Positions 14,823-41,427 of a stretch of DNA of 64,000 nucleotides are shown in pieces (the first letter of the stretch is position 1; each line of letters begins with the position of its first letter). The notes under the pieces are model-generated. The model was not told where the DNA came from. It did not search any database and was given only the letters and a program-made list of their open reading frames with translations. The translations under genes and the position numbers were made by a program. The DNA comes from an uncultured virus (IMG/VR IMGVR_UViG_3300048589_001558) (lineage: Duplodnaviria > Heunggongvirae > Uroviricota > Caudoviricetes): the IMG/VR virus record IMGVR_UViG_3300048589_001558. One strand, given 5' to 3'.

Positions 14823-14843
14823 CGGAATATCTCCTGTGCCGCA

Positions 14844-14897
14844 ACCATAGAGGCGATATTTGTATCCCGTCAAGCGGGTGGGAGATAAAAATATCTT
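14844..14897 (-). promoter_or_regulatory. PL promoter with repressor operators
   Basis: TTGACG (14868-14873) and TATGGT (14844-14849) on minus strand; imperfect palindromes GCGATATTTGTATCCC (14853-14868) and GAGATAAAAATATCTT (14882-14897). Confidence 0.7.
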
Positions 14898-26074: not shown

Positions 26075-26083
26075 GCCGAGCGC

Positions 26084-26633: not shown

Positions 26634-27105
26634 GGGAACGGTTGCCTTCCTTCACCTTGACGCGCGCGTTGGCGAGCGATCGGGCGTCCTGATAGTTTTC
26701 CTCTACGCTCATAAGCACGGCGACCAGGTGGGCGACGTGCGGGATATCGGCCTCGCCGCTCATCCACATATTGACGCGGGCGACAGACCAGCCGCCGATC
26801 TCGGCGAACTCGTCGGCCGTCAGGCCGGCATCGTTGAGCAGGCCCGCGAGGTTCTCGGCCGTGATGATCTCGTAGCCGTTGGCGGTGCGGCTCTGACGGC
26901 TTCGTTCCTCGAGCACGGCGAACGCCGCGTCGAGCGCGGCAACACGCGCGGCATCCTCGCTCTCATAGCGTGCGGGCTTGCCGTCGCTGCCGGCGACGAA
27001 CGCCGGCACCAGCCCGGGCAAGGCATACTGCGCCGCCAGCCCGCGCCCGCTCGGGTGCGGGAGCGCCTTGGCTATCGGGCGCGATGCCGGTTTCTTGGGG
27101 GTCAT
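26626..27105 (-). CDS. Protein with C-terminal XRE-type HTH
   Basis: LNDAGLTADEFAEIGGWSVARVNMWMSGEADIP; AAGGA SD. Confidence 0.7.
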   Translation of the reverse strand: MTPKKPASRPIAKALPHPSGRGLAAQYALPGLVPAFVAGSDGKPARYESEDAARVAALDAAFAVLEERSRQSRTANGYEIITAENLAGLLNDAGLTADEFAEIGGWSVARVNMWMSGEADIPHVAHLVAVLMSVEENYQDARSLANARVKVKEGNRSHD

Positions 27106-27177
27106 TTCGGTTCCTTTGCCATGATTGGCGGGCGGGCGGGACGATACCGCCGCCCGGGGGCGGCGGCAAGGCTGCGG

Positions 27178-27687
27178 CTACAACGACGAAAGATAGTCGA
27201 GCAGCGGCAGGCCCGTGGGTGGAGGTGGGGCTGCTGGAGGCGCAGGAAGTGGCGCCAGCGTCTGCGGCGGGCGTTTGGCGATAGCGAGTGCCCAATTTAT
27301 CACGCGAGCGGCCATCTCCTCAGTCATATGGTCGGAACCGCTCCAACGACGAGCACGGCGGCACATCCGAATGAATCTGGCGGCCGCGATCCTGATGGCC
27401 TTCTCGCGGCTGCCATAGACACAAGGGTGGCCCCATGGGTCCTCATTTTTCTCGATGCTGCTGACCGAGCCGTATGTCGACCAGCGACCATCAGCCAGAC
27501 CGATGACCTCGAAATGGAAGCGGCCGGAGACACGCCAGAACGCATCTTCATTGTAGGCCCACCAACTGTCCCCGGCCATCGGCCAGAAATACCGGTTGAA
27601 CGACCGCCGACCGTCGGCGCGCAGAATCGGTCCGTCATATGGATTCGGGTCGACGGTATGGTCGATCGGCTTGTTCATCCACTTCAT
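27178..27687 (-). CDS. Trp-rich hypothetical protein
   Basis: GPILRADG...SREKAIRIAAAR; follows dnaN. Confidence 0.65.
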   Translation of the reverse strand: MKWMNKPIDHTVDPNPYDGPILRADGRRSFNRYFWPMAGDSWWAYNEDAFWRVSGRFHFEVIGLADGRWSTYGSVSSIEKNEDPWGHPCVYGSREKAIRIAAARFIRMCRRARRWSGSDHMTEEMAARVINWALAIAKRPPQTLAPLPAPPAAPPPPTGLPLLDYLSSL

Positions 27688-27694
27688 GACGCGC

Positions 27695-28888
27695 CTACAC
27701 CCGCGTCGGCATCAGCACGCCGAACCAGCCGCGCTGCGCGCCAACGACAAGCACCGGGCTCGTCGCATCGGCGATCCTCATGGTGATGTAGCCCCCGGCC
27801 GGACAGGCATCGGCCACCATCTCCCTGAGATAGGTGGAATTGAAGCCGACTGTCAGCGGCTCGCCCTCGTAGTCGCAGATGATATCGCTCCATGAAGTCC
27901 CGGCATCAGGTGCGATGCAGGACATCACCGTCTTGTCGGCCGCGAACGAAACGCGCACCGCCTTGCCCCGGACGTCCGTGATCGCTGTCACCGCCCGGAT
28001 CGCCTCGTCAAGACGCTTTGCCAGAAACTCCGCGGTGTTGCTGTTGCCGCTCGGCACGACGCGGGCATAGTCCGGGAACGTCCCGTCGATCAGCTTTGTC
28101 CGCACGTCGATGTCGTTCCACGAGAGCATGACCTGGCTGGACGAAAGTTTCACCTTCACCTGCTTTGGGCAGGTCTTTCCCTTGAGCAGCTTGTGCAGCA
28201 CGTCGACGGCACCACGCGGGATGATCACGCCCGGTATGCCCTCGGACCCCTTCGGCGCCTCCATCTCCTGGCAATAAAGCCGGTGCCCGTCCGTCGCGAC
28301 GGCGCGCATCACATTCGCGTCGTCATCGCGCCGGAACAGGAACACGCCGTTGAGATAGTAGCGCGTCTCCTCGGTCGAGATCGCCTTGCGCACGGCATCG
28401 ATGGCGTTCCACAGCACCGAACCGGGCAGCGTGAACTTCCACGTCTCCCCGGACATGGCGTCGAGTTCGGGATATTCATCAGGAGAGATGGAATTGACGG
28501 TGTATCCGGTTTTGCCGGCGGTGATCCGCGACTGGACGCTTTCGAACCGGTTGCCGCCCGATTCCTCGCCTCCGGCCGGCAGCATGGCGATGGTCAGGCG
28601 CTCCGACTTCTGCGCGTTCCGGCAGATCGACTGCAGAAGGGACGCCGGCAGCGTGGTCGACAGCCGGCCATCGACGTCACCTTGCACCCGGACACGGATC
28701 TCCATGTCGAGATTGAACGCGGTGAGCTTGAGCGCCCCGGCTTCGGCCGCCAGCAGGACGTTCGAAAGGATCGGTATGGTGCTGTGCTTCTCGACGGCGA
28801 GAATGGCGGTGTCGATCGCCGCCGTGAAGGCAGCTCGATCGAGGATGGCCGTAGGATTTTCGGCCGGCGCGATAGGCTGGTGGTTCAT
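27695..28888 (-). CDS. dnaN: DNA polymerase III beta sliding clamp homolog
   Basis: TIPILSNVLL, AISTEETRYYLNGV, VATDGHRL, KLIDGTFPDYARV, GFNSTYL, VLMPTRV. Confidence 0.95.
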   Translation of the reverse strand: MNHQPIAPAENPTAILDRAAFTAAIDTAILAVEKHSTIPILSNVLLAAEAGALKLTAFNLDMEIRVRVQGDVDGRLSTTLPASLLQSICRNAQKSERLTIAMLPAGGEESGGNRFESVQSRITAGKTGYTVNSISPDEYPELDAMSGETWKFTLPGSVLWNAIDAVRKAISTEETRYYLNGVFLFRRDDDANVMRAVATDGHRLYCQEMEAPKGSEGIPGVIIPRGAVDVLHKLLKGKTCPKQVKVKLSSSQVMLSWNDIDVRTKLIDGTFPDYARVVPSGNSNTAEFLAKRLDEAIRAVTAITDVRGKAVRVSFAADKTVMSCIAPDAGTSWSDIICDYEGEPLTVGFNSTYLREMVADACPAGGYITMRIADATSPVLVVGAQRGWFGVLMPTRV

Positions 28889-28954
28889 GTTGTTCTCCAG
28901 GTGCATGATTGCGGGAAAGAGAAGGCCCGCCGCTCGGAAGCGACGGGTGGATCG

Positions 28955-29197
28955 TTAGCTGAGTGCCTTCCAGTGGGTGACAGCCCAGCGTTTGGCCTTC
29001 AAGTCGATGTACGACGCAGGCACACCAGCCCACCAGCGATCTCGGACCCGCCACGCGACTACCGGGAAGTGGTAGATGGCGGCGTCCTCGTCCGATACCC
29101 AGGCGAGGACGTGCTCATGCTCCGCTGGCAAGGCGTCGGCGACGGCCTTTGCGTCGGGAGGCAGCCGTTCTAACTGCCAACTGGCAGCGCCCATCAC
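28955..29197 (-). CDS. Hypothetical protein (DUF551-like pattern)
   Basis: LP.EHEHVLAW...VTHWKAL. Confidence 0.55.
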   Translation of the reverse strand: MMGAASWQLERLPPDAKAVADALPAEHEHVLAWVSDEDAAIYHFPVVAWRVRDRWWAGVPASYIDLKAKRWAVTHWKALS

Positions 29198-30993
29198 GCC
29201 ACCTTCTTGATCTTGTAGCCCTTGAGACGCAGCGCCCCCGGCAACCAGCCAGACTTGCGTGCCGCCTCGGCCGCCTCCCTAGCCATGTCCGCCTTCTTCG
29301 GCTTGATCGCCGCGTGGCCGGTCATCTCCCTCATGGCGGCGTCGATCATCGGCTTGGTGCAGGCGGTGAAGTATGCGTCCGGGTCGAACGCCCCGACCGG
29401 CTTCGCGTCGAACAGGGCGAGGTGTTCAAGCCTCGCCTCGTCGCGTTTATCGCCGTGGCTGTAATCGAAGTCCTTGGTCAGCCATTTCTCGGAGAGGTCG
29501 AGCGTCGACGCGAACACGCCGGCAACGGCGGCGACCAGTTCCTCCGGCGTCATCTTGGCATAGGCCGTCACCGCCGCCTTGATGGTGCGTTCCTTGTTTT
29601 CGGGCTTGGCGCCGTAGTTCATGTCGATCCGCTCGACCTTGAGCCTCGACGGACGGCTTCCGGACCGGTTCTCGTGCTGCTCGAGCATCGCGGCGATAAG
29701 AGCCAGCGTCTTGTGAGGATCAGCGATCGCCGCCGTCTTGAACGCCGCCGTGGCCGTGTCGCCGATCAGATCGCGGAGAGGCTGCGTCAGTGCGAGCGGG
29801 TCTTTCTCCTTGGCTGCAGCACCGGACGATGCACTGCCGGCTATGCCTGCTTTCTTCTCCTGGCCCGGCCGCAGCACGCCGACCTTCCATCGGAACTCGT
29901 TCTCATCGAAGACGACGCCGGCGAGCTTCTTCTGCTCCTCCGTATAGGTGCCCGACTTCGAATCCAGTTCCTCGTATTCGGCCGCGAGCTTGTCCATCTC
30001 GTCGTCCTGCCAGGATTCGGGATCGTAGCCCTCAAGCTGTTCGGACAGTTCCTCCATCCGGGCATATTCCTCCTCGGTCAGGGCGTCGCCTGCCGGTTCG
30101 AGGATTCTGGCCTGATACAGACCGTACAGTCCAAGCTCCTCCGTGGTGGCGAAGAAGGACCAGCCGTCGGCAAGAGCGTCGGCCTTGATCTGCTCGATCT
30201 TTTCGGCCTTCAGCCTTTCGATAAGGTCGGCGCTGATCCACTGGCTGTCGCTGCCGAACAGGTCCTCGGCGATCTGGCCGTCCGCGGCGGCATAGGCTTC
30301 CTCGCCGATGAAGCTGGCGAGCTTTCCGTCAGCACGGATGCCACCGCCACGCATGGCGCTCTTGATGTCGTGGACGTTGCGGCGGCTCCATTGACCGGCT
30401 TCGCGGAAGAATGTCGCCTGCGCCTCCTGATCGAGATTGAGGGTGTAGGCGGCGACGGCCTCGAGGGTGAGGTCGCCCCGCTCGAACGCGGCGAGGATCT
30501 CGGGATGCACATTGCCGAGCGCCAGCCTGCCTTTCACGAAGCGCTCCGACTGGCCGAAGCGCAGCGCGATCTCGGCCACGCTCATGCCCTGGTCGGCCAG
30601 TTCCTTGAAGGCGCGGAACTCGTCGGCGGGCTCCATCTGCCGTCGGATGATGTTCTCCGTCAGCGACATCTCTGACGCCTGCCGGTCATCAACCTCGCGG
30701 ACGATGATCGGTACGGCGAAGTCCAGATCGATCGTCTTCTCGGCGGCCAGTTCCATAAGAGCGCGCAGCCGGCGGCCGCCGGCGAACACACGGTAGAGCT
30801 GCCCGCCGAGATCGGCATCCTCCGCCAGCGGCGGCCGGACGGCGAGCGGCTGGATGACGCCCTGTGCCAGGATCGAGGCTTTCATGCTGGCGATGCTGTC
30901 GTTGTCGTATTTCCTGCGGACGTTCGCCTCATCCCGGATCAACCGGGATAGCGGCACCGACATTTGCTGCGGTTGCTGCGTTGTGACATCCAT
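29194..30993 (-). CDS. parB: Long ParB/RepB/Spo0J-family protein, no ParA partner in window
   Basis: NVRR, GVIQPLAVRP, AGGRRLRAL, SLTENIIR, HTH IALRFGQSERFVKGRLAL; AGGAG SD before 30993. Confidence 0.9.
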   Translation of the reverse strand: MDVTTQQPQQMSVPLSRLIRDEANVRRKYDNDSIASMKASILAQGVIQPLAVRPPLAEDADLGGQLYRVFAGGRRLRALMELAAEKTIDLDFAVPIIVREVDDRQASEMSLTENIIRRQMEPADEFRAFKELADQGMSVAEIALRFGQSERFVKGRLALGNVHPEILAAFERGDLTLEAVAAYTLNLDQEAQATFFREAGQWSRRNVHDIKSAMRGGGIRADGKLASFIGEEAYAAADGQIAEDLFGSDSQWISADLIERLKAEKIEQIKADALADGWSFFATTEELGLYGLYQARILEPAGDALTEEEYARMEELSEQLEGYDPESWQDDEMDKLAAEYEELDSKSGTYTEEQKKLAGVVFDENEFRWKVGVLRPGQEKKAGIAGSASSGAAAKEKDPLALTQPLRDLIGDTATAAFKTAAIADPHKTLALIAAMLEQHENRSGSRPSRLKVERIDMNYGAKPENKERTIKAAVTAYAKMTPEELVAAVAGVFASTLDLSEKWLTKDFDYSHGDKRDEARLEHLALFDAKPVGAFDPDAYFTACTKPMIDAAMREMTGHAAIKPKKADMAREAAEAARKSGWLPGALRLKGYKIKKVA

Positions 30994-31035
30994 GCGTAGA
31001 GTCTCCTGTGGTTGCATGGTTGCGGGGTGATTCTC

Positions 31036-31347
31036 ATGACTCTGTGGGCAGACAATATCGGCAGCGGGAATCTTGGGGCTGCCGTGGCGGCGGCACTTGT
31101 CGAGGACATTCGGAGAAATAGAACGGGACTGGATGGCTTCCCGCGGATAGCCGTTGAGCGGCCCAGCCAAGACGAATTCCTCATCGGGCTGATAGCGGAC
31201 GACATTGCCGCGGAGACTTTCTCCCTCACAACGGCGGAGGCAAAGGCTGCTATCGATTCGATGAAGGCGTCGGCGCCCCCGCCCAGGTCGGTTTTCGAGA
31301 AGGCGCAGAATGCGCTCGCCCGACTTGAGATTGCTGTTCGCGGCTAG
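31036..31347 (+). CDS. Counter-oriented hypothetical protein
   Basis: Fills gap between parB and ATPase; protein-like composition, GGGGTGA SD-like sequence. Confidence 0.55.
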   Translation: MTLWADNIGSGNLGAAVAAALVEDIRRNRTGLDGFPRIAVERPSQDEFLIGLIADDIAAETFSLTTAEAKAAIDSMKASAPPPRSVFEKAQNALARLEIAVRG

Positions 31348-31370
31348 CATTTCGCTTTGCGCCAAGGTCT

Positions 31371-33317
31371 TCAGCCGGCCTTGCCAGTCTTGAAGGAGAG
31401 GCCCATGCGGCTGGCGACGGCGGCGACGTTTGGATATGGCCGGCCGATGCGCTTTGCGACGTCGATCAGACGCTCGCCACGCTCGCAGGCTTCGGTCAGC
31501 ATCTCATACTCCTTGTCGGTCCACGCGATGCGCTGCTTAAATCCGAGGTTGCTTGCCTTCGTTCGGATGGCGGCTTCCATCTTGCCAAGCTCGGCGGCGA
31601 TCACCTTGACCGGCGTCTTTGCCTCGTAGAGCACGCGCAATCGCTCGATCTGTTCCGGGGTCCATGGGTCGGGAGCCCGGTTGAAGTTGTGCTTCTGCGC
31701 AAACTTGAAGATTGCCGTGATGCCGCGGTGAAAACCCGCGTCACGAAGGTCTTGCAGAACCTCCCGATGGGGCTTGCCGGCTTCCAACCCGGCAATGGCA
31801 ATCTCTTTCTCCGGCTCGGTCCAGTAGTTCACACGGTCGCGTGTGATGCCGAGAGCGATCGCCCGCATCTGGACGGATACACGGCCACGGTCGTAGCCGG
31901 CATCGCTGAGCAATTGCACGATGTCCATGATGCGGACCTCGCGCTCATAGGCGTCCGTGATGATCTGGTCTTCTTCGTCGGACCATTGGACTGCCGCCCG
32001 TGTGCTGGTGTAGCCAAGGTCGCGAGCACGGCTGGAGATGCCGCTCACCGCGCGCCTCCGAAAACCAGCATCGACGAGCTTTTGCTGGATTTCGCGCACC
32101 TGCAGGTTGGACTTGTAGCCGGCTTCAACTATGGCGTCCTCACCGACGGCCCACCCGCGCCCTCGCTTGCCGTGCTCACGGCGGTCCTCGGCGTCCAACG
32201 GCTTAACGTCCGGCACCTGGCTCAGCAACGCAGCCGCCTCGGCAGCCGAGATCGGAGGGGGCGCCACGACGACGGGCGCTGCGCCCTTATGCCGTGAGAC
32301 CACCGGGCCGGCCTTGAACCGGATGCGCCGGGGACCGGCGATGGCCGGGCCGATAGCTAGGAACTCACCGTCCGCCAACGTGCGCAGCGCCCTGCTATGG
32401 CCAAGCGTGAATCCGAGGAGTGTGCCGGCGCGCTCAAGATCGCGATCGAAGATGGTACGGCCGACGACGACGTTGGTCGCCTTCGCGACCACGGCCTTTG
32501 CCGTCTCCGCTATCCGCTGGGTGGCGATGATACCCGCGATGCCCCGCTTGCGACCGCGGCCCATGAGATCGGAAAGCGTAGCCGTGCACCGCTTGCGGGT
32601 ATCGGCCGTCACGTCGCCGGTGTCGTAGTGAGCGGCGAGCGTCTGCGCCTCGTCGATCAGCACGAGCAGTGGATGCCAATGTTGCTCCGGTGAATCGACC
32701 AGTCCCTCGGCAAGGTCGGACACGATCTCCAAGCGTTCCTCCGACGTGGCATCGGACAAGTCAAGAACGGCGCTGTAGCGATGCTCGCGCAAATGATGAG
32801 CGAAGGTGCTGCCCCCGATACGCCGGACATTGGCCGCCGTCAGGACAGCAACGTCGAAGTGTTCTTTCAGGGTGGAGAACTCTCCGTCCGGGTCGATGAG
32901 GAGCTGCTGCACGCGCCCGAACGACTGCTCGAACAGACGACGCAGCAGCATCGACTTGCCTGCACCGCTATTGCCCTGAATGAGCAAGCGGCCGTCGATC
33001 AGCTTGACGAGATCGATGCCGACTGGCTCGCCTTTCAGCGAACTGCCGATGTTGATGTCGTCGGCACCAAGAGTGCGCGCCGGCGCCGCCGGTTCCACCG
33101 CAGCGGCAAGATCAACAGGTCCGTCGTCGGTCTCCGGCTCCTCCGGGGTCTTGATCGGCGATGCCACTCCTGCCTCCTGGGCGAGGAGCTGCGCCACCTT
33201 CCGGTCTGCGGGCGACAGCTTGGCCAGATCCTCGCCGGTCGGGAAGACGATGCCGAATGTGCGCGAGATGGGCCCCTCACGCGTCTCGCGGATCAGGTGT
33301 TGCATGATGGTCTCCAT
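31371..33317 (-). CDS. HerA/DUF87-like ATPase fused to five tandem Myb/GcrA-like HTH repeats
   Basis: GNSGAGKS, IDPDGEF, LIDEAQ, GRGRKRG, ATQR; repeats begin WAVGED, WSDEED, WTEPEK, WTPEQI, WTDKEY. Confidence 0.85.
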   Translation of the reverse strand: METIMQHLIRETREGPISRTFGIVFPTGEDLAKLSPADRKVAQLLAQEAGVASPIKTPEEPETDDGPVDLAAAVEPAAPARTLGADDINIGSSLKGEPVGIDLVKLIDGRLLIQGNSGAGKSMLLRRLFEQSFGRVQQLLIDPDGEFSTLKEHFDVAVLTAANVRRIGGSTFAHHLREHRYSAVLDLSDATSEERLEIVSDLAEGLVDSPEQHWHPLLVLIDEAQTLAAHYDTGDVTADTRKRCTATLSDLMGRGRKRGIAGIIATQRIAETAKAVVAKATNVVVGRTIFDRDLERAGTLLGFTLGHSRALRTLADGEFLAIGPAIAGPRRIRFKAGPVVSRHKGAAPVVVAPPPISAAEAAALLSQVPDVKPLDAEDRREHGKRGRGWAVGEDAIVEAGYKSNLQVREIQQKLVDAGFRRRAVSGISSRARDLGYTSTRAAVQWSDEEDQIITDAYEREVRIMDIVQLLSDAGYDRGRVSVQMRAIALGITRDRVNYWTEPEKEIAIAGLEAGKPHREVLQDLRDAGFHRGITAIFKFAQKHNFNRAPDPWTPEQIERLRVLYEAKTPVKVIAAELGKMEAAIRTKASNLGFKQRIAWTDKEYEMLTEACERGERLIDVAKRIGRPYPNVAAVASRMGLSFKTGKAG

Positions 33318-33318
33318 G

Positions 33319-33606
33319 TCATGGTTGACGGGTGAGGTAGGCGGGCGGCACGAAGGGCTCGATCACCAGCGCGAAGACGCCGGTTTCCATATCGATGGTG
33401 TTGAGACTGATCTTCCGGAGTCGGCGGGCCGCGAGGCCGCAATGCTCACTGTGCAAGCGGACGAGGCCGGCCTTCACATCCTTGACGACGTTCAAGGTCA
33501 GCGCGCCGCCGTAGAAGGCACCGACATATTGCTGAACATCGGCGATGTACGCCGCATGCTCGTTGTCGTCGATCTCGCGCAGGATGGCCTCGCCGATGCT
33601 GATCAT
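33319..33606 (-). CDS. Hypothetical protein
   Basis: ATGA-coupled to vWA gene; start MISIGE. Confidence 0.6.
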   Translation of the reverse strand: MISIGEAILREIDDNEHAAYIADVQQYVGAFYGGALTLNVVKDVKAGLVRLHSEHCGLAARRLRKISLNTIDMETGVFALVIEPFVPPAYLTRQP

Positions 33607-34820
33607 GCGGCGATGCTCACGCATTCGCCCCACGGCGCCATTGCCGCGCGCTGCTTGTACTCACGGCTGTCGCCGTGGATCGCCCACAGCACCGGCGCCA
33701 TCGGCTCGTCACCGAAATCGCAGGTCAGCATGTCGGTAAAGTAGATGATCGCCGACGCATCCGGCGCATTCCGCTCGATCCACTCGAATGCCGGGCGGAA
33801 GTCTGTGCCGCCGCCGCCCTCCGGGCGAAGGGCGAGAATGTCGCCGGCCTCAAATTCCTCGATGCGCTGGACTGCGGCGTCGGCATAGACCACGGTCACC
33901 TTGTCGATGTTGCCGTCGCCAAACGCGCCGTTCAGCTCCGAGGCGAAGGCAATGCGAGCCTTGTCGGTATCGAGCGAGCCGGAGGTGTCATCTACAACGA
34001 CGAGATGGTTGATGCCGTCCGACTGCAGGCCGGGGAGGATGAGACCACGGGACAGGAGGCGGCGGTTCGGCCGAGTCCATGTGTAATCCTTCCGGGAGCT
34101 GTCATCGATGAAGCGCCGGAGCACCTGACGCCAATCAACGACAGGCTCCACCAGCCTGTCGATGAGGCGCTGCACGCCGGCCGGCAGCGTCCCGGCGTTC
34201 GCGCCGCGCGCCATGGCGGCCGCCTGCCGTATCTGCCGCTGGACGTCCGCTCTCGCCTCGGCGATTGCCGTCACGTCGTGCGGGTTACAGGCATCGATGA
34301 CGCCACCGCAGCCGCCCGGATCGGAGCCCTGCCCCGCGCCGGAGGCAGCGCCGCCCTGCTGGCCGCCGCCGCCCTTCTGCTCGTCTTCCTCCAGAAGCCG
34401 GTAGATTTCCTCGGCCGACAGACCTGTGAAGCGGTCGGAGATCAGGCCGTCCTTCGGCATCGTCCAGCCGGCGTAGCGCTTCTCCCGCTGCATGGCCTTC
34501 TCGTACTCGACGAGCTCGCCGTTGATGGCGTAGTCGGCGGCCTCGTTCCACCGGCCCGGATCGCGGGCCTGTCGACGGATGTGGTGTTCGAGCGCGTTGT
34601 GCATGACCTCGTGGGCCATGACGAAGACCAATTCCTCCTTGGTCAGCCCGTTGACCCACGGCTCATTGTAGTAAAGGCGCTTGCCGTCTGTCGCCATGGT
34701 GTCGATACGAGGATCGTCGGTGGCGTCGACGAGTTCGAGCTGCACGGCGAGCGCGCCGAAAAACGGATGGTCCCACAGCAGCGAGGTGCGGGCGGCAAGT
34801 ATCTTGTTGGTGATGCTCAT
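33603..34820 (-). CDS. DUF2201-type metallopeptidase plus vWA domain protein
   Basis: TMATDG, AHEVMH (HExxH), DWRQVL, MIDAS DTSGS, GGGGTDF, YFTD. Confidence 0.9.
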   Translation of the reverse strand: MSITNKILAARTSLLWDHPFFGALAVQLELVDATDDPRIDTMATDGKRLYYNEPWVNGLTKEELVFVMAHEVMHNALEHHIRRQARDPGRWNEAADYAINGELVEYEKAMQREKRYAGWTMPKDGLISDRFTGLSAEEIYRLLEEDEQKGGGGQQGGAASGAGQGSDPGGCGGVIDACNPHDVTAIAEARADVQRQIRQAAAMARGANAGTLPAGVQRLIDRLVEPVVDWRQVLRRFIDDSSRKDYTWTRPNRRLLSRGLILPGLQSDGINHLVVVDDTSGSLDTDKARIAFASELNGAFGDGNIDKVTVVYADAAVQRIEEFEAGDILALRPEGGGGTDFRPAFEWIERNAPDASAIIYFTDMLTCDFGDEPMAPVLWAIHGDSREYKQRAAMAPWGECVSIAA

Positions 34821-35095
34821 GATCGGGGGTTCTCCAGCTGGAGTGAGGCGGCAGTGCATTGGGCGATGGCGACGGCGGGGAGTGCCGCGCGTAGGGCTTC
34901 GAGAGGACTGGGATCGCAGGAATACTCAAAGCCATCCCGCCAGAAGGCGGCGTCGAAGCTTCTCGTCTTCGGGTGAAACACGATGGCCAGATACTCGTTT
35001 GGGCTGGTCAACCGCTTCGGGTAGAACCGCCATTCGAGCTTGCCCTCGACGCGCTCCGGGAACCTGTATTTCTTGCGGATTTCGTCGGGGGTCAT
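34817..35095 (-). CDS. Hypothetical protein
   Basis: Start MTPDEI; coupled. Confidence 0.6.
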   Translation of the reverse strand: MTPDEIRKKYRFPERVEGKLEWRFYPKRLTSPNEYLAIVFHPKTRSFDAAFWRDGFEYSCDPSPLEALRAALPAVAIAQCTAASLQLENPRS

Positions 35096-35097
35096 GA

Positions 35098-35361
35098 CTA
35101 CCCCACAAGCGAAGAGCGTGTGCATTCGGCGATCGCCTCGGGCGGCAACAGCCTTTTCAGCTTGGCGATCTCGTGGGGAAGAAGGTGTCGCCAAGCCGCG
35201 CGATAATCTCTGCCCGTGAACTCCCGCGCAGCGGAATTATAGCGGAGCGCGAAGTCGATCTTGCGCGTCACCTTCTTGCGCCAAACCCACCGAAGCAGGT
35301 CTCCGTTGTCACGCTCGGGCCTCTCGTAGGTGCGAAGGATTTCCTCCGTAAAGATGGTCAC
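35098..35361 (-). CDS. Hypothetical protein
   Basis: GTG start overlapping upstream stop, GGAG SD. Confidence 0.55.
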   Translation of the reverse strand: MTIFTEEILRTYERPERDNGDLLRWVWRKKVTRKIDFALRYNSAAREFTGRDYRAAWRHLLPHEIAKLKRLLPPEAIAECTRSSLVG

Positions 35362-35693
35362 CGCCTCTCTCCATGCTTGAGCGCCAGACGTGTCGCCTGG
35401 GCGATATGTTCGGGTTTGAGCTGGGCCCGCAGCAGCGGGCCGATGCGGGAGACGTTGATCTCGGCCGACTCGTAGGCCGGGAACAGACCGGGGGTCATGA
35501 GCTTGTCGTCGCCGGGCTTGGGCGAGCAGCGGAAGGTCTTGAATTTCCGGGTGCGGGCGTCGAACCAGAGGGTCCAGCGGCAGAACTCGCCGTTCTCGCG
35601 GATGCCGGTGAAGGACCATGCAATGCCATGGCCCTTCACCTTGGTCTTGAGCGGGCCGAACACCTTCCGGATGCGGGGAAGCGCGGGAGCCAT
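35358..35693 (-). CDS. Hypothetical protein
   Basis: Start MAPALP just after upstream stop. Confidence 0.6.
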   Translation of the reverse strand: MAPALPRIRKVFGPLKTKVKGHGIAWSFTGIRENGEFCRWTLWFDARTRKFKTFRCSPKPGDDKLMTPGLFPAYESAEINVSRIGPLLRAQLKPEHIAQATRLALKHGERR

Positions 35694-35694
35694 G

Positions 35695-36018
35695 TTATCG
35701 CGCCGCCTTGATCGCGAGCCGGGTGGCAAGGGCGACACCGCCCTTGCCGATCCGTGGCTTGAGGATGTCGAGATAGGTCGGCCCGTGCAGCATCGGCCTG
35801 TCCGGGACGAAGGCGTCGGGATGGACGACCTCAACGCCTGTTGCCCACCCCGTCATCGGGAAATTCACCAACTTCCACGTGCGCTCCTTGACGGCAAAGC
35901 GCACAGCCCATCGGCCCGTCGTGTCATCCTCGCGGATGCCGAAGAAGTGCCAGTCGATGCAGCCCGGTTCGACGAACGGGCCGAACGGTCCATAGAGGGC
36001 GCGGAGGAAGACGGTCAT
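35695..36018 (-). CDS. Hypothetical protein
   Basis: Directly follows AAA ATPase. Confidence 0.6.
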   Translation of the reverse strand: MTVFLRALYGPFGPFVEPGCIDWHFFGIREDDTTGRWAVRFAVKERTWKLVNFPMTGWATGVEVVHPDAFVPDRPMLHGPTYLDILKPRIGKGGVALATRLAIKAAR

Positions 36019-36019
36019 G

Positions 36020-37051
36020 TCAGTGGATCGTCACATCCTGATTGTCGACCGCCCACTGCACGAATGCGTTGGTGTGCGACAGCGCCGGGTCACGGCGCAC
36101 GGCGTCCACGACGCACATGATCTCGAACTCGCGCACCTGAAGTCGCTTCAGGTACCTGATGCCGTTCTCCAGCGTCCGGTCCGTCACCTTGCGGGCCAGC
36201 CCCGCAGCGATCGCGAACCGGGCGGCCGGCTCGGTCGGCAACGGCGCGCTGTTCGGGTTGGCGAGCACGAGGTCGAGCGACGGCAGGCTCTTGTAGACGC
36301 GGATGAAGCCGTCGAGCTCGGCGGCCCCGCCCTGCCCCACCACGCCCGACAGCAGGAACATGCGCCTCGTGTCCGGCGCATCGATGTAGGGTTCGGCATC
36401 CTCCCACGAGCGAGGCGTCGGGAAGGCGCGGAGATCGGACCCGGACATGTCGTGCAGCAAGCCCTCGCGGAACCGCAGGAAGGCCAGCAGGATCGGGTTC
36501 AGGTCCTTCTTGGCGAAGTGCCTGGTCACCGACGGGACGGTCGGCATGATCTCGATATGGGCGAGACGGTTGGCGAGCGCGCTCGGCATGCGCTGCGCGG
36601 CCGCACGATCCGACTGCCGATTGCCGGCGCCCATGATGTAGACGCCCTTCTTCAGCCGGTGTTCCCCGACACGCCGCTCCTGGATGAGCTGCATGGCGAC
36701 GACCTGCATGGCTGGCGAGCCGGTGTTCATCTCGTCCATGAAGACGATGGTGTCCTCCGGAAAATCGGAACCCTCGAACGGCAAGTCGCTCGGCCGGAGC
36801 CAGCGCGTGACGTTCTTCTCGAGGTCGGGCATGGGCAGGCCGCGGGCATCGACCGGCTCGCGCAGATTGGTGCGCCAGTCGAGCACGGGGCGCTTGAGCT
36901 GCTCGCCCAACTGATATGCGCCCTGCGTCTTGCCGATGCCGGGAGGGCCCCACCAGAAGACCGGCTTGTTGTTGCGCATGTAGTCGAGGGTGAGGTCGAC
37001 GGCCATGGTGAGGTCGACGACTGGATGGGTGGTGTTCACGGCGTTCGCCAT
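36020..37051 (-). CDS. MoxR-like AAA+ ATPase
   Basis: WGPPGIGKT, DARGLP, FMDEMN, GAGNR, ALANRL, FPTPRSW. Confidence 0.92.
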   Translation of the reverse strand: MANAVNTTHPVVDLTMAVDLTLDYMRNNKPVFWWGPPGIGKTQGAYQLGEQLKRPVLDWRTNLREPVDARGLPMPDLEKNVTRWLRPSDLPFEGSDFPEDTIVFMDEMNTGSPAMQVVAMQLIQERRVGEHRLKKGVYIMGAGNRQSDRAAAQRMPSALANRLAHIEIMPTVPSVTRHFAKKDLNPILLAFLRFREGLLHDMSGSDLRAFPTPRSWEDAEPYIDAPDTRRMFLLSGVVGQGGAAELDGFIRVYKSLPSLDLVLANPNSAPLPTEPAARFAIAAGLARKVTDRTLENGIRYLKRLQVREFEIMCVVDAVRRDPALSHTNAFVQWAVDNQDVTIH

Positions 37052-37105
37052 GGTGATCTCTCCGTTCGCATGGTTGCGGGGATGGCGGCGCCGAAGCGCC
37101 GCCGG

Positions 37106-37294
37106 TCAGCCGAGCGGGGCGACCCGAAACTCATATTCGGGATTGTCGGCCGCGTTCTCGGCTATGAAGTTCTCGGCCTTCTCTTTGGTTTCGAACCTCG
37201 CGGCGTGGATGCGCAGCGGGTTCAACCCTCCGGTCGAGGTGAGGAAGGCGTAGCGTTTCGTCCCGACCTCGCGGCACTTCACCGCCCAACTCAC
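37106..37294 (-). CDS. Small hypothetical protein
   Basis: GGAGG SD, GTGA overlap. Confidence 0.65.
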   Translation of the reverse strand: MSWAVKCREVGTKRYAFLTSTGGLNPLRIHAARFETKEKAENFIAENAADNPEYEFRVAPLG

Positions 37295-38205
37295 GCCAGA
37301 AACCCTCCGATGCTATCGAGGATCGCCTGCGCCTCGGTCGCCACGTTCCGGCGCACCTCGGCATCGTCACGCAGGACAGAAGCATCGAAGCGGGCCAGCT
37401 CGTAGAGGCGGTCGCCAAGGGCGCGCAGGCCGGGATCGCCGGTGATGTTGAGCGCCGGCAGCACGTCGATCAGGTCGCGGATGTTCTCGACCAGGCTGTC
37501 GCGGAAGATGCCCTCGGCGCGGTCGCCCTTGCGCTTGGCCGGCTTGTATGCTCCCAGCCGCTCGACCATGTGCCCGACCTTGTCGGCGATGCGTTCATAG
37601 ACATCGCGCACGGCCGCCGCGGTTGCGTCGGTCACCGTCGTCTCGATCTCGGAACGGATGCGCGCCACCTGTGCGTCGCTCATCTCCACCCGGAAGTCGG
37701 CGGCGGTCGGCACCGGCAGCACCTTCACCTCCATGGAGAACTTGCCGCGCAGGTCGTCGACCGAGGGGTAGTCGGTGTGGTCGAACATCGAGCCGAGCCG
37801 GGCGCTCGCGGCCTGCACGTGGTTCGGATAGCCGCGCAGGAAGTCGGACACGGCCGCCTGAAACTTGGCCTCCTGCCCTCGCATCCATGCAGCATGTGCC
37901 ATGAAGGCGTCGGCCGCCATGATCCGGCCGCCGGCGTCCATCCACGGGAGCGTACGCTTGCGGAACTCGGCGCCGGTCTCGTTGGCGATCTTCTGGATCG
38001 GTTCGAGCGCTTCCTTGCGCACCAGCAGCTTGTTGAAGTTGCCGGCGTCGTCGGACGCGCCGTGCTGCGCCTTTACCTGCCGGGTGACGGCGCGGTCGAC
38101 GCGCCGGCCTTCCCATTGCGAGATCTTCAACGCCACGATCAGCGCGCGGGCGGCGAGCGCCCCGGAGGATGGCGAAGTCGTGGAGATCGGGGTCATCATG
38201 TTCAT
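37291..38205 (-). CDS. DUF3150-like helical phage protein
   Basis: ISQWEGRRVD, NKLL, TLPW, MFD..DYPS...KF, FRDSLVEN, LNITGD; typical neighbour of MoxR/vWA. Confidence 0.7.
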   Translation of the reverse strand: MNMMTPISTTSPSSGALAARALIVALKISQWEGRRVDRAVTRQVKAQHGASDDAGNFNKLLVRKEALEPIQKIANETGAEFRKRTLPWMDAGGRIMAADAFMAHAAWMRGQEAKFQAAVSDFLRGYPNHVQAASARLGSMFDHTDYPSVDDLRGKFSMEVKVLPVPTAADFRVEMSDAQVARIRSEIETTVTDATAAAVRDVYERIADKVGHMVERLGAYKPAKRKGDRAEGIFRDSLVENIRDLIDVLPALNITGDPGLRALGDRLYELARFDASVLRDDAEVRRNVATEAQAILDSIGGFLA

Positions 38206-38239
38206 GTCGGACTCCTGAGGTGCATGATTGCGGGCGTGG

Positions 38240-38284
38240 GAACAGGAACGGAACAGGAATGAGATATTCCTATCGCTTAGTCAA
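38240..38284 (-). promoter_or_regulatory. Internal promoter with CI-type operator and LexA box
   Basis: TTGACT (38279-38284, minus), operator GAGATATTCCTATCGC (38261-38276), GAAC-N7-GAAC (38240-38254). Confidence 0.7.
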
Positions 38285-38321
38285 GATATTTGGGACCCTC
38301 TTGGCGATATGAAAAGCGCTG

Positions 38322-38492
38322 CTAGGCGCACCAGTCGCCCTTGCTGCGTTCGGGCAGCACGATGAAAAGGGAAAGCGGGCCGAAGCCTGCGCCCCACACA
38401 TAGGTCGACAGGCGTTCGAAGAAGAAGCGCGGGCGCAAGCCAAAGGTGACGTCGACATGCGCGTCGACGCCAAGACGGATTCGCATTCTCAT
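38322..38492 (-). CDS. Small protein (56 aa, MRMRIRLGVDAHVD...), absent from ORF track
   Basis: Read manually; AGGAGA SD. Confidence 0.5.
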   Translation of the reverse strand: MRMRIRLGVDAHVDVTFGLRPRFFFERLSTYVWGAGFGPLSLFIVLPERSKGDWCA

Positions 38493-38501
38493 GATGATCT
38501 C

Positions 38502-38591
38502 CTATGGAGGCGGGACTTCCGGTTCGTCGGCCGGGATGGCGGCGGCCAGGGCGACCGCCGCGATGGAGATAAATAAAGCCCTCCGGGTCAT
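38502..38591 (-). CDS. 29-aa hydrophobic peptide (MTRRALFISIAAVALAAAIP...)
   Basis: ATGA-coupled; exactly fills the gap. Confidence 0.35.
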   Translation of the reverse strand: MTRRALFISIAAVALAAAIPADEPEVPPP

Positions 38592-38764
38592 ACCATCTGG
38601 CCCGGATCCGGTGGTGGAGCCGCCTCGTTCAGCAGGATCACGCAGGCGACCGGATCGACGCGGCACAGATCGAGCAGCGTGCGCGGCTGCATCGCGGCGT
38701 GCGCAAGCATCACGGACAGCCCCAGCAGGGCGGAAATGACGAGAGCGGAGACGATGTTGCTCAT
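38588..38764 (-). CDS. Small membrane/secreted protein
   Basis: GAGGAGG SD; hydrophobic N-terminus MSNIVSALVISALLG. Confidence 0.55.
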   Translation of the reverse strand: MSNIVSALVISALLGLSVMLAHAAMQPRTLLDLCRVDPVACVILLNEAAPPPDPGQMV

Positions 38765-39057
38765 GCCGCCCTCCTCATTTCGACTATCTCGCACTCGCGG
38801 AAGAAGCGTTCGAGGGCGAGCAGGTCCTGCACATCGGCGTCGTCGTCGCCATGCCCGCACTGGCTGGCGTGGCTTTTCGCGATGACGAGGCATTGCACCG
38901 TGTGCTGGAGGCACCATGCGCGGTGCGCCTCGTCGATCGGGCGGGCGTCGCCTGCCGGGAACGTGTAGAACACGCGGCCGGGGTCGGCGTCGTTCATGTA
39001 GCTGCCCCATTGCGAGGCGATGGCATAGGCGGCAGCGGGGGTGAGACGGTCAGCCAT
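38761..39057 (-). CDS. Hypothetical protein
   Basis: Start MADRLT; IASQWGSYMNDADPG. Confidence 0.6.
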   Translation of the reverse strand: MADRLTPAAAYAIASQWGSYMNDADPGRVFYTFPAGDARPIDEAHRAWCLQHTVQCLVIAKSHASQCGHGDDDADVQDLLALERFFRECEIVEMRRAA

Positions 39058-39268
39058 TGCACACCAGCCCGTCGGCGCGGGCGCCGAGCACGATGTCCTC
39101 GAGGCACCGGTGCTCCACGGCGAGCGGGAGCCGGGCGTCCGGGCCGATGTTCTCGATGATCCAGTCATGGCCGCGCTGCGTGATCGGCATGCAGGTGGCG
39201 AAGGCACCGAGATTGGCGAAGCGCAGGTCGGGGCAGCGCTTGGGAAACGGGATGATCTGGGCGCTCAT
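39050..39268 (-). CDS. Small hypothetical protein
   Basis: GGAGG SD; coupled. Confidence 0.65.
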   Translation of the reverse strand: MSAQIIPFPKRCPDLRFANLGAFATCMPITQRGHDWIIENIGPDARLPLAVEHRCLEDIVLGARADGLVCNG

Positions 39269-39459
39269 GACCGCACCTCCACGCGGCCGGCGCGACCGGC
39301 GAGCAGGCGGGCGGTGGTGACGGCACCGGAGCGGCGCGGATAGCTGGACAGGAAGTTGGTCCCGTCTGCGGTGCGGACGGACAACTGCCAGGGGTTGCGG
39401 GATGGGCGCTCGGCGCGCGAGACGACGTAGGTGTACGCCGCCACTGGTGGACGTTGCAT
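39265..39459 (-). CDS. Small hypothetical protein
   Basis: AGGAGA SD; preceded by two motif copies. Confidence 0.65.
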   Translation of the reverse strand: MQRPPVAAYTYVVSRAERPSRNPWQLSVRTADGTNFLSSYPRRSGAVTTARLLAGRAGRVEVRS

Positions 39460-39696
39460 GATTGCGGTTCTCCTGTTGCCATGATTGGCGGGTGTCGGCC
39501 GTGCGGCCGGATCAGCGCGCTATGCGGGCGCTGGTCGAGCGGCACGGGAGGTGCGGGCGCGCGGTTTCGTGGGCAGGCGCGCGCCTGCATTGTCCTGCCG
39601 GTGGTTCACATGGCGGGCTCCTTTCGCGGGAGGGTTCGGTCGTGCCTGGGAGGGCAACGGAGCGGGCGCGATGCTGCGCCCGGCGGATTCGTGGTA

Positions 39697-39879
39697 CTAT
39701 TCGCTGGCGAGGTCGATGGGCGCGCCGGTGCACGCCTCGATATTCCAATCGGTCGGCGCGGCGGCGGCTATTTCGCAGGCGCTGGGCCGGGTAAGGCAGT
39801 CCTCGACGGCGGCATAAAGCCAGCCGGCAAGGAACCAGATGGCGCAGAAGGCGAGCGTCTGGACGGTTTCGCGGGTCAT
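39697..39879 (-). CDS. Small single-TM protein
   Basis: GGAGG SD; TLAFCAIWFLAGWLYAAV. Confidence 0.55.
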   Translation of the reverse strand: MTRETVQTLAFCAIWFLAGWLYAAVEDCLTRPSACEIAAAAPTDWNIEACTGAPIDLASE

Positions 39880-40076
39880 AGCGGCGCCTCCGGCCGGGTG
39901 CGGATCACGACATAGTCGGAGCCGGGGACGGCGGTGATGGTTGTCGGGGTCGCCTCGCGGCTGGCGCGGGGACGGCGTTGCGGGTGCTCGCGGCGCACGA
40001 TGCAGATGGAGATTGCGAGGCGGCCGATGCGCACGAAGCGGATGCCGCCCACCTTGCAGGTGGCGAAGGTCAGCAT
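39876..40076 (-). CDS. Small hypothetical protein
   Basis: MLTFATCKVGGIRFVRIGRLAISICI; coupled. Confidence 0.55.
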   Translation of the reverse strand: MLTFATCKVGGIRFVRIGRLAISICIVRREHPQRRPRASREATPTTITAVPGSDYVVIRTRPEAPL

Positions 40077-40291
40077 GGGCTCGTGTCCATGCGTTGGAGC
40101 AGGGTTTTCGCGATGTGGCGCGCGTGGCGGACGGGACCGCGATCGCCCGGCTTTGGGTCGGGCATATCCGCGATGATCCGAAGGCCAGCGCGCATGTCGG
40201 GCACCAGCGCATCCACGATGGCGGCGAGACCGGCGGCGTTGGCGATGTCGGCGAGCAGGATCTTTTCGCCTGTGCGAAGCGGGCGGATCAC
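40070..40291 (-). CDS. Small hypothetical protein
   Basis: GGAGG SD, GTG start overlapping upstream stop. Confidence 0.5.
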   Translation of the reverse strand: MIRPLRTGEKILLADIANAAGLAAIVDALVPDMRAGLRIIADMPDPKPGDRGPVRHARHIAKTLLQRMDTSPC

Positions 40292-40473
40292 GGGCGCGCC
40301 TCCAGAATGCGCACCCCGGCGAGGCGGCGGCGTTGCGCGTCGGCGGCGGCGACGGCCGCGCGGACTTCCTCGCGGAAGCGGCGCAGCTCGCGGGTGCGCG
40401 GCGTCTCGTAATACGGGTGATGGAATGGCGGCGCGGGGGGCGCCGGTGGCGTCGGGACGGATTCCGGGCGCAT
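40288..40473 (-). CDS. Small hypothetical protein
   Basis: AGGAGA SD preceded by motif copy. Confidence 0.55.
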   Translation of the reverse strand: MRPESVPTPPAPPAPPFHHPYYETPRTRELRRFREEVRAAVAAADAQRRRLAGVRILEARP

Positions 40474-40750
40474 GGGGTTCTCCTGGGTCGCATGATTGCG
40501 GGGGCGAGCAGTTTACCGACGTGCTCAGGTCCGGACGGGCGCTACCGTCATGGCTCCTGCTCGTGGGGTGCCCGGCGCGCGCTGGTGGCGTGGCGCGCGA
40601 CGGCCCGGATTGTTTATTGCTCGCCCGGCGACGAGACCTCACGCGGCTTGGCGGATGGTGGGGCCAGCCCCGGCCGTGAGAATGCCGGCATGGTGCCGCG
40701 GCAGCGTCCGGACCCATTGAGGGCGTCGGCGGGCGCTGGCGTAGGACCAT

Positions 40751-40783
40751 GCGAAAAGGCCCGCCTTGCGGGCGGGCCTTCGC
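40751..40783 (-). terminator. Intrinsic terminator after first gene of leftward operon
   Basis: AAGGCCCGCC-CGCAA-GGCGGGCCTTTT on minus strand. Confidence 0.7.
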
Positions 40784-40807
40784 GGGGATTGCGGGCGGGT
40801 GGCGGGA

Positions 40808-41392
40808 TCAGGCGGCGGCGGCCTCCTGCGTCTCGGCGACCGGGGCCGGCTTGGCGGCGGCCTTCTTCGCCTTGGCGGGCTTTGCGGCCTTGACGAGCGT
40901 CGGCTTGGCGTCGGCCTTGCCCTCGACGATGGCGATCGCGCCCTTGATGGCCTGCATCACGCGCGGATCGACCGTGCCGCCCTTTTCGCGGATGGCTTCG
41001 AGCTGGACCAGGGCGCTGGCGAGCACCTTTTCCTGCGTGTTGACCCGCTCGCCCTTGGCGCCCTTGGCTTCCTTCTGGAAGTCGGCGGGCGAGACGGCCA
41101 TTGCGCCTTCCATGTCGCCGGCCTTGGACTTGGCATAGGCGAACGTCAGCGCCTTGGCGTCGAACGTGACGCGGCCGAAATTGGTGAACCAGTTGACCAG
41201 CATCGAGCGGTAATTGACCGGCACCGCGTCATAGAACTGCTGCACATAGCAAGCGTCATGGTGTTCGTCGACGTGCGCCAGCGCCGAATAGGCAATCTGG
41301 TGCATGAGCGCCGAGAACGTCGCCGCCTTCGCGCCGAAACCGGCAATCGCCTTAGCAATGCCCTTGCCCTTGAGAACGGAAAACTGAGCCAT
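40808..41392 (-). CDS. Ala/Lys-rich phage early protein, first gene of leftward operon
   Basis: GAGAGGG SD; strongly GC3-biased codons; histone-like AKPAKAKKAAAK tail. Confidence 0.75.
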   Translation of the reverse strand: MAQFSVLKGKGIAKAIAGFGAKAATFSALMHQIAYSALAHVDEHHDACYVQQFYDAVPVNYRSMLVNWFTNFGRVTFDAKALTFAYAKSKAGDMEGAMAVSPADFQKEAKGAKGERVNTQEKVLASALVQLEAIREKGGTVDPRVMQAIKGAIAIVEGKADAKPTLVKAAKPAKAKKAAAKPAPVAETQEAAAA

Positions 41393-41427
41393 AATCGAAC
41401 CCTCTCTATTGTGCCATGATTGGCGGG

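Follow-up and report, generated by a model that had tools for sequence, protein, structure and literature searches.

We describe a small stem-loop that recurs at gene starts in one operon of an uncultured Caudoviricetes virus (IMG/VR record IMGVR_UViG_3300048589_001558). The whole stretch of DNA that was analyzed, called the window here, is 64 kb long with 63.8% G+C. The element is a real, conserved and previously undescribed stem-loop family, and nine copies of it lie in a leftward operon of the window, the module (26084..41392, minus strand, with genes identified by family matches of the Pfam and PHROGs type). We show its anatomy, the rule that governs its strand and position, and its restriction to this prophage module. 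The original prediction, made from the letters of the window without database searches, had described a linear word of 13–15 nt, CCCGC(C)AAYCATG; the conserved unit is instead a mini stem-loop with a covarying stem.

Copies of the stem-loop in the window

Nine exact matches to CCCGC(C)AAYCATG lie on the minus strand of the window and none on the plus strand, in line with the predicted strand bias. Eight of the matches are in the module (27132, 28915, 31026, 37080, 38234, 39492, 40502 and 41427), within the range originally given, and the ninth is outside it at 14808. When at most one mismatch was allowed, the 12-mer had 8 matches against 1.02 expected, with none of 100 shuffles reaching 8, and the 13-mer had 4 against 1.00 expected, with 3 of 100 shuffles reaching 4. 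A compensated variant at the HerA start (33332) joins the eight exact copies, so that the module holds nine element copies between 27105 and 41431, all on the minus strand. They are listed below with bit scores and E values from a covariance model (R1) for which these window copies were themselves training sequences.

Copy 1: 41400..41431, minus strand, GCC-AAUCAU-GGC, before the first module gene (start 41392); 29.2 bits, E 4.3e-6
Copy 2: 40476..40507, minus strand, CGC-AAUCAU-GCG, before a 61-aa gene (start 40473); 35.1 bits, E 8.9e-8
Copy 3: 39465..39496, minus strand, GCC-AAUCAU-GGC, before a 64-aa gene (start 39459); 30.2 bits
Copy 4: 38208..38239, minus strand, CGC-AAUCAU-GCA, before the DUF3150-like gene (start 38205); 26.6 bits
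Copy 5: 37054..37085, minus strand, CGC-AACCAU-GCG, before the MoxR-type AAA+ ATPase gene (start 37051), after an 8-bp GC hairpin at 37084-37103; 29.4 bits
Copy 6: 33305..33336, minus strand, GUC-AACCAU-GAC (CCCGTCAACCATGAC), before the HerA/D5-like ATPase gene (start 33305), overlapping the stop codon of the preceding open reading frame (ORF); 17.6 bits, E 0.0083
Copy 7: 31000..31031, minus strand, CGC-AACCAU-GCA, before the ParB-N-domain gene (start 30993); 31.0 bits
Copy 8: 28889..28920, minus strand, CGC-AAUCAU-GCA, before the DnaN sliding-clamp gene (start 28888), after a 9-bp hairpin at 28926-28947; 23.4 bits
Copy 9: 27105..27136, minus strand, GCC-AAUCAU-GGC, before a 159-aa helix-turn-helix (HTH) gene (start 27105), after a 10-bp hairpin at 27146-27167; 22.7 bits

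When the whole window was searched with this model and with filters off, nine matches reached E <= 0.0083; they lie between 27105 and 41431 and are confined to the minus strand. The next-best matches had E = 0.66 (plus strand) and E = 1.1 (the copy at 14808); nothing comparable came from the rightward or structural operons, in which the motif had not been noticed. The variant suspected at the HerA start proved genuine: its stem is compensated (GUC/GAC), and the model matches it at E = 0.008. The one suspected at the start of the vWA gene (34818) is not a copy: GGAGA comes before it, the ATG of this look-alike is where the gene itself starts, and no model match reaches E <= 10 at this place. 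Another degenerate look-alike (ACCGCAATCATG), at 39457-39468 (minus strand) and 24 nt beyond copy 3, contains the ATG with which the 64-aa gene starts.

Each module copy is followed, 4–9 nt further 3', by GGAG, GGAA or GAGA, in keeping with the prediction that most copies end a few nucleotides before a Shine-Dalgarno (SD) sequence, and the start codon is 16–26 nt away. Copies precede only genes with an intergenic gap before them. A gene that overlaps or abuts its predecessor has none, and the first module gene is likewise preceded by a copy.

The match at 14808 is of a different kind:

14797-14808 (region 14782..14851), minus strand, an atypical tenth motif copy inside the 5' end of a small ORF in the leftward early operon; 10.1 bits, E 1.1

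No SD follows it. It forms a 10-bp helix with an exact inverted copy, ATGGTTGCGG, 33 nt upstream, and this helix encloses the SD and ATG of the small ORF. The inverted pair at 14782-14851 may act as an operator or a translational trap, or it may be a site for RNase III. A promoter look-alike read by eye, TTGACG-18-TATGGT, overlaps the upstream arm of the helix.

Base pairing and distribution in related prophages

Relatives were gathered through alignment of MoxR homologues; bacterial genomes contributed 16 loci and viral contigs 76, numbered here with the prefix L. The genome loci come from Rhizobium, Ensifer, Brucella/Ochrobactrum, Pseudochrobactrum, Mesorhizobium, Hoeflea, Peteryoungia, Devosia, Ancylobacter, Aurantimonas, Roseibium and others. 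The element was present in many of these loci, throughout on the gene strand on first inspection. Its consensus is CC-NGC-AAYCAU-GCN', a 4-bp stem (N-G-C-A / U-G-C-N') closed by a tetraloop that is mostly A-N-Y-A. The first A and the last U of the AAYCAU 'loop' are invariant and able to pair, which is why a folding program draws a 4-bp stem and a tetraloop. The 5' flank is C-rich and G-poor, with 81–85% C in the CC at -5/-4, and on the 3' side an A/C-rich spacer leads to GGAG.

To analyze pairing, we collected sites from the window and the related loci by loop, SD and ORF only. The triplets flanking AAYCAU proved complementary (CGC/GCG 35, GCC/GGC 13, TGC/GCA 11, GGC/GCC 4, and 3 each of GTC/GAC, CTC/GAG and AGC/GCT), with CGC/GCA (33) as the main exception. 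In an ungapped alignment of 148 of the 159 sites, 89.0% of cells were paired, compared with 67.2 ± 1.3% in shuffles, none of 500 of which reached 89.0%. The covariation score was 0.430 against 0.100 in shuffles, and it fell to 0.057 or less when the partners were slid. At the 129 sites with an inner C-G pair, from the window and related Hyphomicrobiales prophages, the middle pair is Watson-Crick without exception (G-C 86, C-G 30, U-A 13); the outer pair is Watson-Crick at 95, C.A at 28 and something else at 6. Compensatory swaps are also seen at orthologous sites: among relatives, the site before the first module gene carries GCC/GGC or GGC/GCC, and the one before the DUF3150 gene CGC/GCA, GCC/GGC or UGC/GCA. 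Base pairing of the element is thus shown by covariation.

The spacing seen in the window also holds across the relatives. From the end of the motif to the SD there are 2–9 nt, mostly 4–9, and from the motif to the start codon 16–26 nt with a mode of 20 (109 of 119 sites, those with a gene call). The AAYCAT loop is the only patch containing A or U amid a GC-rich context. The ATG inside the motif is no start codon, as the original prediction had already argued: among the 119 sites, 10 of which lack a gene call, it lies in frame 0, 1 or 2 relative to the gene 28, 40 and 41 times. A role for this ATG as the start of an upstream ORF was rejected as well, since the out-of-frame upstream ORFs range patternlessly from 3 to 205 codons. 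Whole lineages carry GTG, ACG or AGU at this place, so the ATG of the element is incidental.

A covariance model trained on the 129 sites gave 206 matches at E <= 0.1 in 73 non-redundant related loci (1.25 Mb), of which 205 are on the gene strand and 120 are training rows. The expectation that the motif would be conserved and strand-biased in related prophages is therefore borne out. A structure-only scan, which fixes three Watson-Crick pairs, a C-rich and G-free flank, an SD and an ORF, gave 221 gene-strand sites, compared with 26 on the opposite strand. The loops it picked up were AAUCAU (46), AAUUAU (18), AAUCGU (14), AACCAU (9), AACUAU (8), ACUCAU (7), AAACAU (7) and others. Most have the form A-[A-N-Y-A]-U, and the commonest tetraloops are AUCA, AUUA and ACCA. 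Copies of one genome mostly have the same loop, and loops differ between lineages: AAUCGU is found in L016, L019, L039 and L042, AAUCAC in L035, and AAUAGU in L033 and L040, where the stem is a covarying 6–7 bp with U.G pairs on the sense strand.

Five relatives of lower G+C content (L048, L049, L050, L054 and L077, 46–52%) carry a 50-nt intercistronic unit, the GAAGC type, in 5–14 copies each. It consists, in order, of AUGUUUCU, a variable 8–10-bp hairpin, AGAAGCAU, a loop, GCUUC, AA and AGGAGGAG, and it has two mutually exclusive folds, in which AGAAGCAU can pair either with the upstream AUGUUUCU or with the downstream GCUUC just 5' of the SD. Such units are located, for example, at 3300-15000 in L048 and 3500-15600 in L077, and a variant at 7469 in L050 preserves both pairings in a different sequence.

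In two relatives that lack the element, L004 and L012, an extended SD, CUGAAAGGA, directly follows canonical intrinsic terminators between the same module genes, so read-through or antitermination must operate there. A separate terminator-like hairpin (GCAAGGGCGC...GCGCCUUUUCGCGGC), which the window does not have, is conserved 3' of the first module gene, immediately ahead of the second gene's element, at these places:

L002, 2060-2100: terminator-like hairpin after the first module gene
L003, 5150-5185: the same
L005, 5800-5840: the same
L020, 1440-1480: the same
L078, 430-465: the same

A 16-base pattern matched 91 stretches of the viral collection, and in 41 of the 84 matches examined (80 loci) an ORF of at least 40 codons followed. 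About half of the matches are in coding sequence and represent chance, and the convincing ones are mostly in contigs of known relatives. Searches for loci with single proteins found nothing, and a metagenome scan returned two distant matches only.

In host genomes, the full element is found only inside prophage, as the predicted phage specificity implied. The 12-mer occurs 5–12 times in each of five host genomes (reversed control, 0–2) and clusters on one strand in prophage. None of the 20 scattered matches retrieved is followed by an SD and start or a long ORF, and all lie in sequence that looks coding; a general host signal was rejected on these grounds. When GGAG was added to the 12-mer, 19 of the 43 places in four host genomes fell within four 12-kb modules.

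A GC hairpin had been reported just 5' of the motif in most cases. This stands as an enrichment among relatives, and it does not stand as an integral part of the element. A contiguous stem of at least 6 bp lies within the 50 nt upstream of 61 of 143 element sites and 87 of 300 control SD sites. Four of the nine window copies have one (27132, 28915, 37080 and the AU-rich stem at 38234), and a further three (39492, 40502 and 41427) have 5-bp or interrupted upstream stems. The mean fold energy of the upstream 50 nt is -16.4 kcal/mol, whereas controls have -13.1 and shuffles -11.7. A T-rich tail is present in only 6 of the 61 upstream hairpins, so most of them are not classical terminators. The upstream GC hairpin is a frequent and enriched neighbor of the element, not a component of it.

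[quoted passage not shown]

A fixed place beside the SD, together with base-pair covariation, argues for an RNA-level role at the ribosome-binding site. The element adjoins the SD, stands at every independent start and carries a conserved loop and CC flank on a covarying stem, with loops specific to lineages; we therefore read it as a candidate translation-initiation element. Our preferred reading, plausible though short of probable, is that it is an mRNA hairpin that controls translation initiation, probably via a bound factor. Our inference here has three parts: action of the pairing at the level of RNA, binding by a factor, and an effect on translation. Within the mRNA of a single phage operon, a small stem-loop that ends 4–9 nt before the SD would mark every cistron that needs a fresh ribosome start, the first gene included, and overlapping cistrons would go without it. 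The hairpin would lie at about -27 to -13 from the start codon, inside the stretch of mRNA covered by the 30S ribosomal subunit, so a bound factor would switch all nine sites together. The loop and the CC flank are conserved beyond the needs of pairing, and a factor seated on them could make the module a post-transcriptional regulon, with either repression or enhancement as the effect. A co-evolving recognizer would give the pattern of one loop per genome that differs by lineage. A bolder version, possible but doubtful, is a phage-borne regulon in which a dedicated factor reads the mini-hairpin before the ribosome-binding site of every independently translated gene in a replication-type module. 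Lineages would have re-tuned the pair (AAUCAU, AAUCGU, AAUAGU, AAUCAC and GAAGC-type) into mutually orthogonal 'hairpin + SD' cassettes, which would also mark the joints of gene swaps.

Several observations weigh against control of translation by a loop-reading factor. The stem is weak, with a mean of -3.8 kcal/mol and a closing-pair probability of 0.64. The outer pair is C.A at 28 of the 129 main-type sites and never G.U, and the complementary strand folds better at 116 of the 129, which leaves the acting strand of the main type unproven. The lineages with long stems do have sense-strand G.U pairs, and there the sense strand folds better at 4 of 6 AAUAGU sites and 23 of 30 GAAGC-type sites. 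Mixed loops within L014 and L009 weaken strict loop recognition. L001, L004, L008 and L012 have the same module genes without the element, and L001 is the nearest relative of the window in the MoxR tree (a quick tree only); as close relatives with the same genes have lost it, the element is dispensable for the module. Pfam and PHROGs matches revealed no RNA-binding protein in the window, and no gene tracks the presence of the element or its loop type within 10 kb on either side in the related loci, the range covered by this search, which would miss a partner elsewhere in the prophage. The best partner candidate, the first module gene, is present in 24 of 33 element-bearing and 3 of 17 element-free loci, and both the first and the second module genes occur in the element-free L001, L004 and L012.

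The main rival, which we consider rather unlikely, is that the element punctuates the operon for mRNA processing or stability: an endonuclease would cut between the upstream stem-loop and the mini-hairpin or within the loop, the upstream hairpin would guard the 3' end and the mini-hairpin would cap the new 5' end, giving each cistron its own stability and yield. The enrichment of strong upstream hairpins, mostly not terminators, and the lower fold energy upstream are consistent with such processing, as is a loop that forms the sole A/U-containing patch in its surroundings. GAAGC-type relatives have 16–18-bp interrupted hairpins, a shape that resembles the phage intercistronic RNase III sites of the T7 early region; the 3' arm of such a hairpin can alternatively form a 5-bp hairpin right before the SD, and one GAAGC-type variant preserves both pairings with a different sequence. 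However, a strong upstream hairpin is missing at 82 of 143 sites, and the element also precedes the first gene, which has no upstream cistron to be separated from. Processing would not need the tight SD spacing, a 4-bp stem is a poor protective cap, and lineage-specific loops are unexpected if the reader is a conserved host RNase. A quite different and improbable reading places the function in DNA, with a ~30-bp block of hairpin and SD serving as a homology patch for the exchange of gene cassettes and being kept by that exchange. The original prediction had raised such joints, and similarity blocks do tend to end at the copies: among close relatives, 34 of 239 internal block ends are within 40 nt of an element against 9.2 expected from coverage, a block end is found at 19 of 49 element gene starts compared with 48 of 248 element-free starts (Fisher p = 0.0048), and several blocks begin 4–12 nt from an element (L005/L007, L003/L037, L016/L019). 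This enrichment may simply reflect intergenic gaps, since the control starts include overlapping genes without a spacer, and exchange at gene boundaries is general in phages. A homology patch needs no pairing, yet the middle pair covaries perfectly, and the strict SD spacing and conserved loop point to a function in expression.

Transcriptional readings fare worse. It is very improbable that each copy is a compact module-specific promoter, read by the host RNA polymerase with a phage factor and making every gene or group of genes a separate transcription unit with a leader of ~15 nt. AAYCAT does resemble a -10 hexamer (four of six matches to TATAAT by eye), the SD spacing is constant, and several copies come after terminator-like hairpins, a few of which have U-tracts (for example L003 5512, L005 16289 and L030 16481). 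Against this, no information whatever is present from -30 to -11, no -35-like conservation was found upstream of the element, and no copy has a consensus promoter; the flanks covary as base pairs, and compensatory changes such as GCC/GGC, GGC/GCC, GUC/GAC and CUC/GAG are unexpected for a site in duplex DNA. A scan of 26000-43600 for a sigma-70-like consensus found one site, away from the elements, and Pfam and PHROGs searches of the window matched no gene for a sigma factor, an RNA polymerase or an N- or Q-like antiterminator. The least probable of the readings is the nut-like antitermination site that had also been proposed, in which the hairpin would be a boxB-type handle for a phage protein that lets transcription read through the intergenic hairpins. 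A small hairpin with a conserved loop, a long operon with stem-loops between its genes, the terminator-like hairpin conserved after the first gene in relatives and the small arginine-rich protein encoded by the second module gene would all suit it. But there are nine copies tied to SDs rather than one or two behind a promoter, and between -30 and -6 no column apart from the CC at -5/-4 exceeds 0.4 bit and no boxA-like block is seen. The arginine-rich family is also present in the element-free L001, L004 and L012, and T-rich tails are found on just 6 of the 61 upstream hairpins; several tests go against the nut-like proposal.

Four further candidates were tried and rejected. Masking of the SD, as in a ROSE-like RNA thermometer, finds no support in predicted folds of 141 sites: the probability that the SD is unpaired is 0.465, compared with 0.428 when the 5' flank is shuffled, and the conserved CC of the flank rarely pairs with the SD. 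Complementarity to rRNA was examined in one or two host genomes only; the best duplex with host 16S rRNA has -19.7 kcal/mol, as do 200 shuffled elements (-19.7 ± 2.1), and no matching hairpin mimicked by the element was found in the 16S or 23S rRNA of one host. The mini-hairpin is not an intrinsic terminator, as it has no U-tract and is followed by an A/C-rich spacer and GGAG. In the type found in the window it is not an RNase III site of the T7 early kind either, having a stem of 4 bp instead of an interrupted helix of about two turns.

Known systems and the surrounding genes

Rfam gave no match at the gathering score in the window, two chance-level matches at E <= 5 in 26500-42000, and only tRNA in five relatives; as no Rfam family matches it, the element is a candidate new RNA family. 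A full-text search of open-access papers and bioRxiv found no published description of it. The closest described thing is the start-associated sequence (SAS) of Cluster K mycobacteriophages, with its extended form, ESAS. In a study of these repeats (PMC3203893), the SAS is a 13-bp sequence, 5'-GGGATAGGAGCCC, which contains the SD core and lies 3–7 bp from the start codon; it has one orientation, stands at the starts of many non-structural genes, is absent from the host and is conserved across sub-lineages before different gene families. Its function is given there as unknown, with a proposed role in translation initiation, and for the inverted repeats of ESAS the authors found no support for RNA pairing (PMC3203893). 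Set against that account, our element is similar in being short, asymmetric and repeated, with a single orientation, at many gene starts of a non-structural region, with nine of nine window copies on the coding strand. It differs in lying 5' of the SD (by 4–9 nt), in sharing no sequence with the SAS described there and in having pairing that is supported by covariation. The hosts also differ, the SAS phages infecting Actinobacteria and the prophages described here residing in Hyphomicrobiales.

Other systems are similar in part. Among the translational operator hairpins are domain 2 of the thrS operator, the coat-protein operators of RNA phages and the T4 gene 43 operator, in which occupation of the loop controls 30S binding. 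The MS2 operator follows an A-N-Y-A loop rule, has a bulged purine, includes the start codon inside its hairpin and is bound by a partner protein of the coat type. Like these operators, the element is a small hairpin beside or 5' of an SD, and its commonest loops (AUCA, AUUA and ACCA) fit the A-N-Y-A rule of MS2. Unlike them, each being single-copy with a known protein partner, it has nine copies per genome, and no partner emerged from the family matches or the gene-presence search; unlike the MS2 operator, it has no bulged purine in the stem and its start codon is outside the hairpin. The intercistronic RNase III sites of the T7 early operon and the intercistronic stabilizer hairpins of alphaproteobacterial operons such as puf are likewise repeated structured signals between the cistrons of one operon and near the next ribosome-binding site. 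In contrast to them, the element of the window has a 4-bp stem, much shorter than RNase III would need, and the first gene is preceded by a copy as well. Nut sites of the lambda type combine boxA and boxB. Like the element, they place a small hairpin whose loop is conserved in the nascent RNA of an early-type operon, and have loop variants specific to lineages; the element differs in copy number and in its tie to the SD, it has no boxA, and no N-like protein was found in the window.

Multi-copy gene-start signals of phages were known already, the mycobacteriophage SAS being one of them, and the signal described here is of that kind and shows clean base-pair covariation. More than 200 instances are present in prophages of Rhizobium, Ensifer, Hoeflea, Devosia, Peteryoungia, Ancylobacter, Aurantimonas and other Hyphomicrobiales, and both loop variants and knock-outs occur naturally, the latter being relatives that have lost the element. 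With the covariation, the many instances, the variants and the natural knock-outs in hand, the function of a start-associated repeat becomes directly testable by reporters and compensatory mutants. Should there be a specific reader, the variants would serve as ready-made orthogonal parts for translation control in alphaproteobacteria.

The window itself reads as a temperate phage or prophage, as judged from its gene content. Besides the module, its main features are:

1-1410, minus strand: integrase, at the left end of the window
Leftward early operon, minus strand: SSB, Dda-like helicase, exonucleases, RecT and a RecE-like protein
15877-16584: CI-type repressor
Rightward operon: RuvC-like protein, OmpR-type regulator, methyltransferase and primase-helicase
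From 43.2 kb: structural genes (terminase, portal, capsid, baseplate, sheath)

Megablast found no near relatives of the window among GenBank phages, and the best MoxR matches there are ~31% identical. From 41.4 to 26.1 kb, the module encodes a phrog_1448 protein, several small ORFs, the DUF3150-like protein, the MoxR-type AAA+ ATPase, a DUF2201/vWA protein, the HerA/D5-like ATPase, the ParB-N-domain protein, the DnaN sliding clamp and the HTH protein. The product of the first module gene (40808-41392, minus strand) is a helical protein of 194 aa with a Lys/Ala-rich tail, and its family is conserved across Hyphomicrobiales prophages. Its AlphaFold model (mean pLDDT 78.9) had no fold match in the PDB at E <= 0.001, and its sequence had no match. 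The family of the second (40288-40473, minus strand), a 61-aa arginine-rich protein with an HPY(F/Y)ET motif, is conserved across Hyphomicrobiales prophages as well. Upstream of the module, the region 41487-42000 has 49–60% G+C, no convincing ORF and several hairpins, including one with a 10-bp stem at ~41487-41517. Probably it either serves as a control region for both the module and the divergent structural operon or encodes a small RNA. In one related locus, a Hoeflea prophage (L013), a tRNA gene is found beside the module at 5695-5768 on the minus strand (Rfam RF00005, 64 bits).

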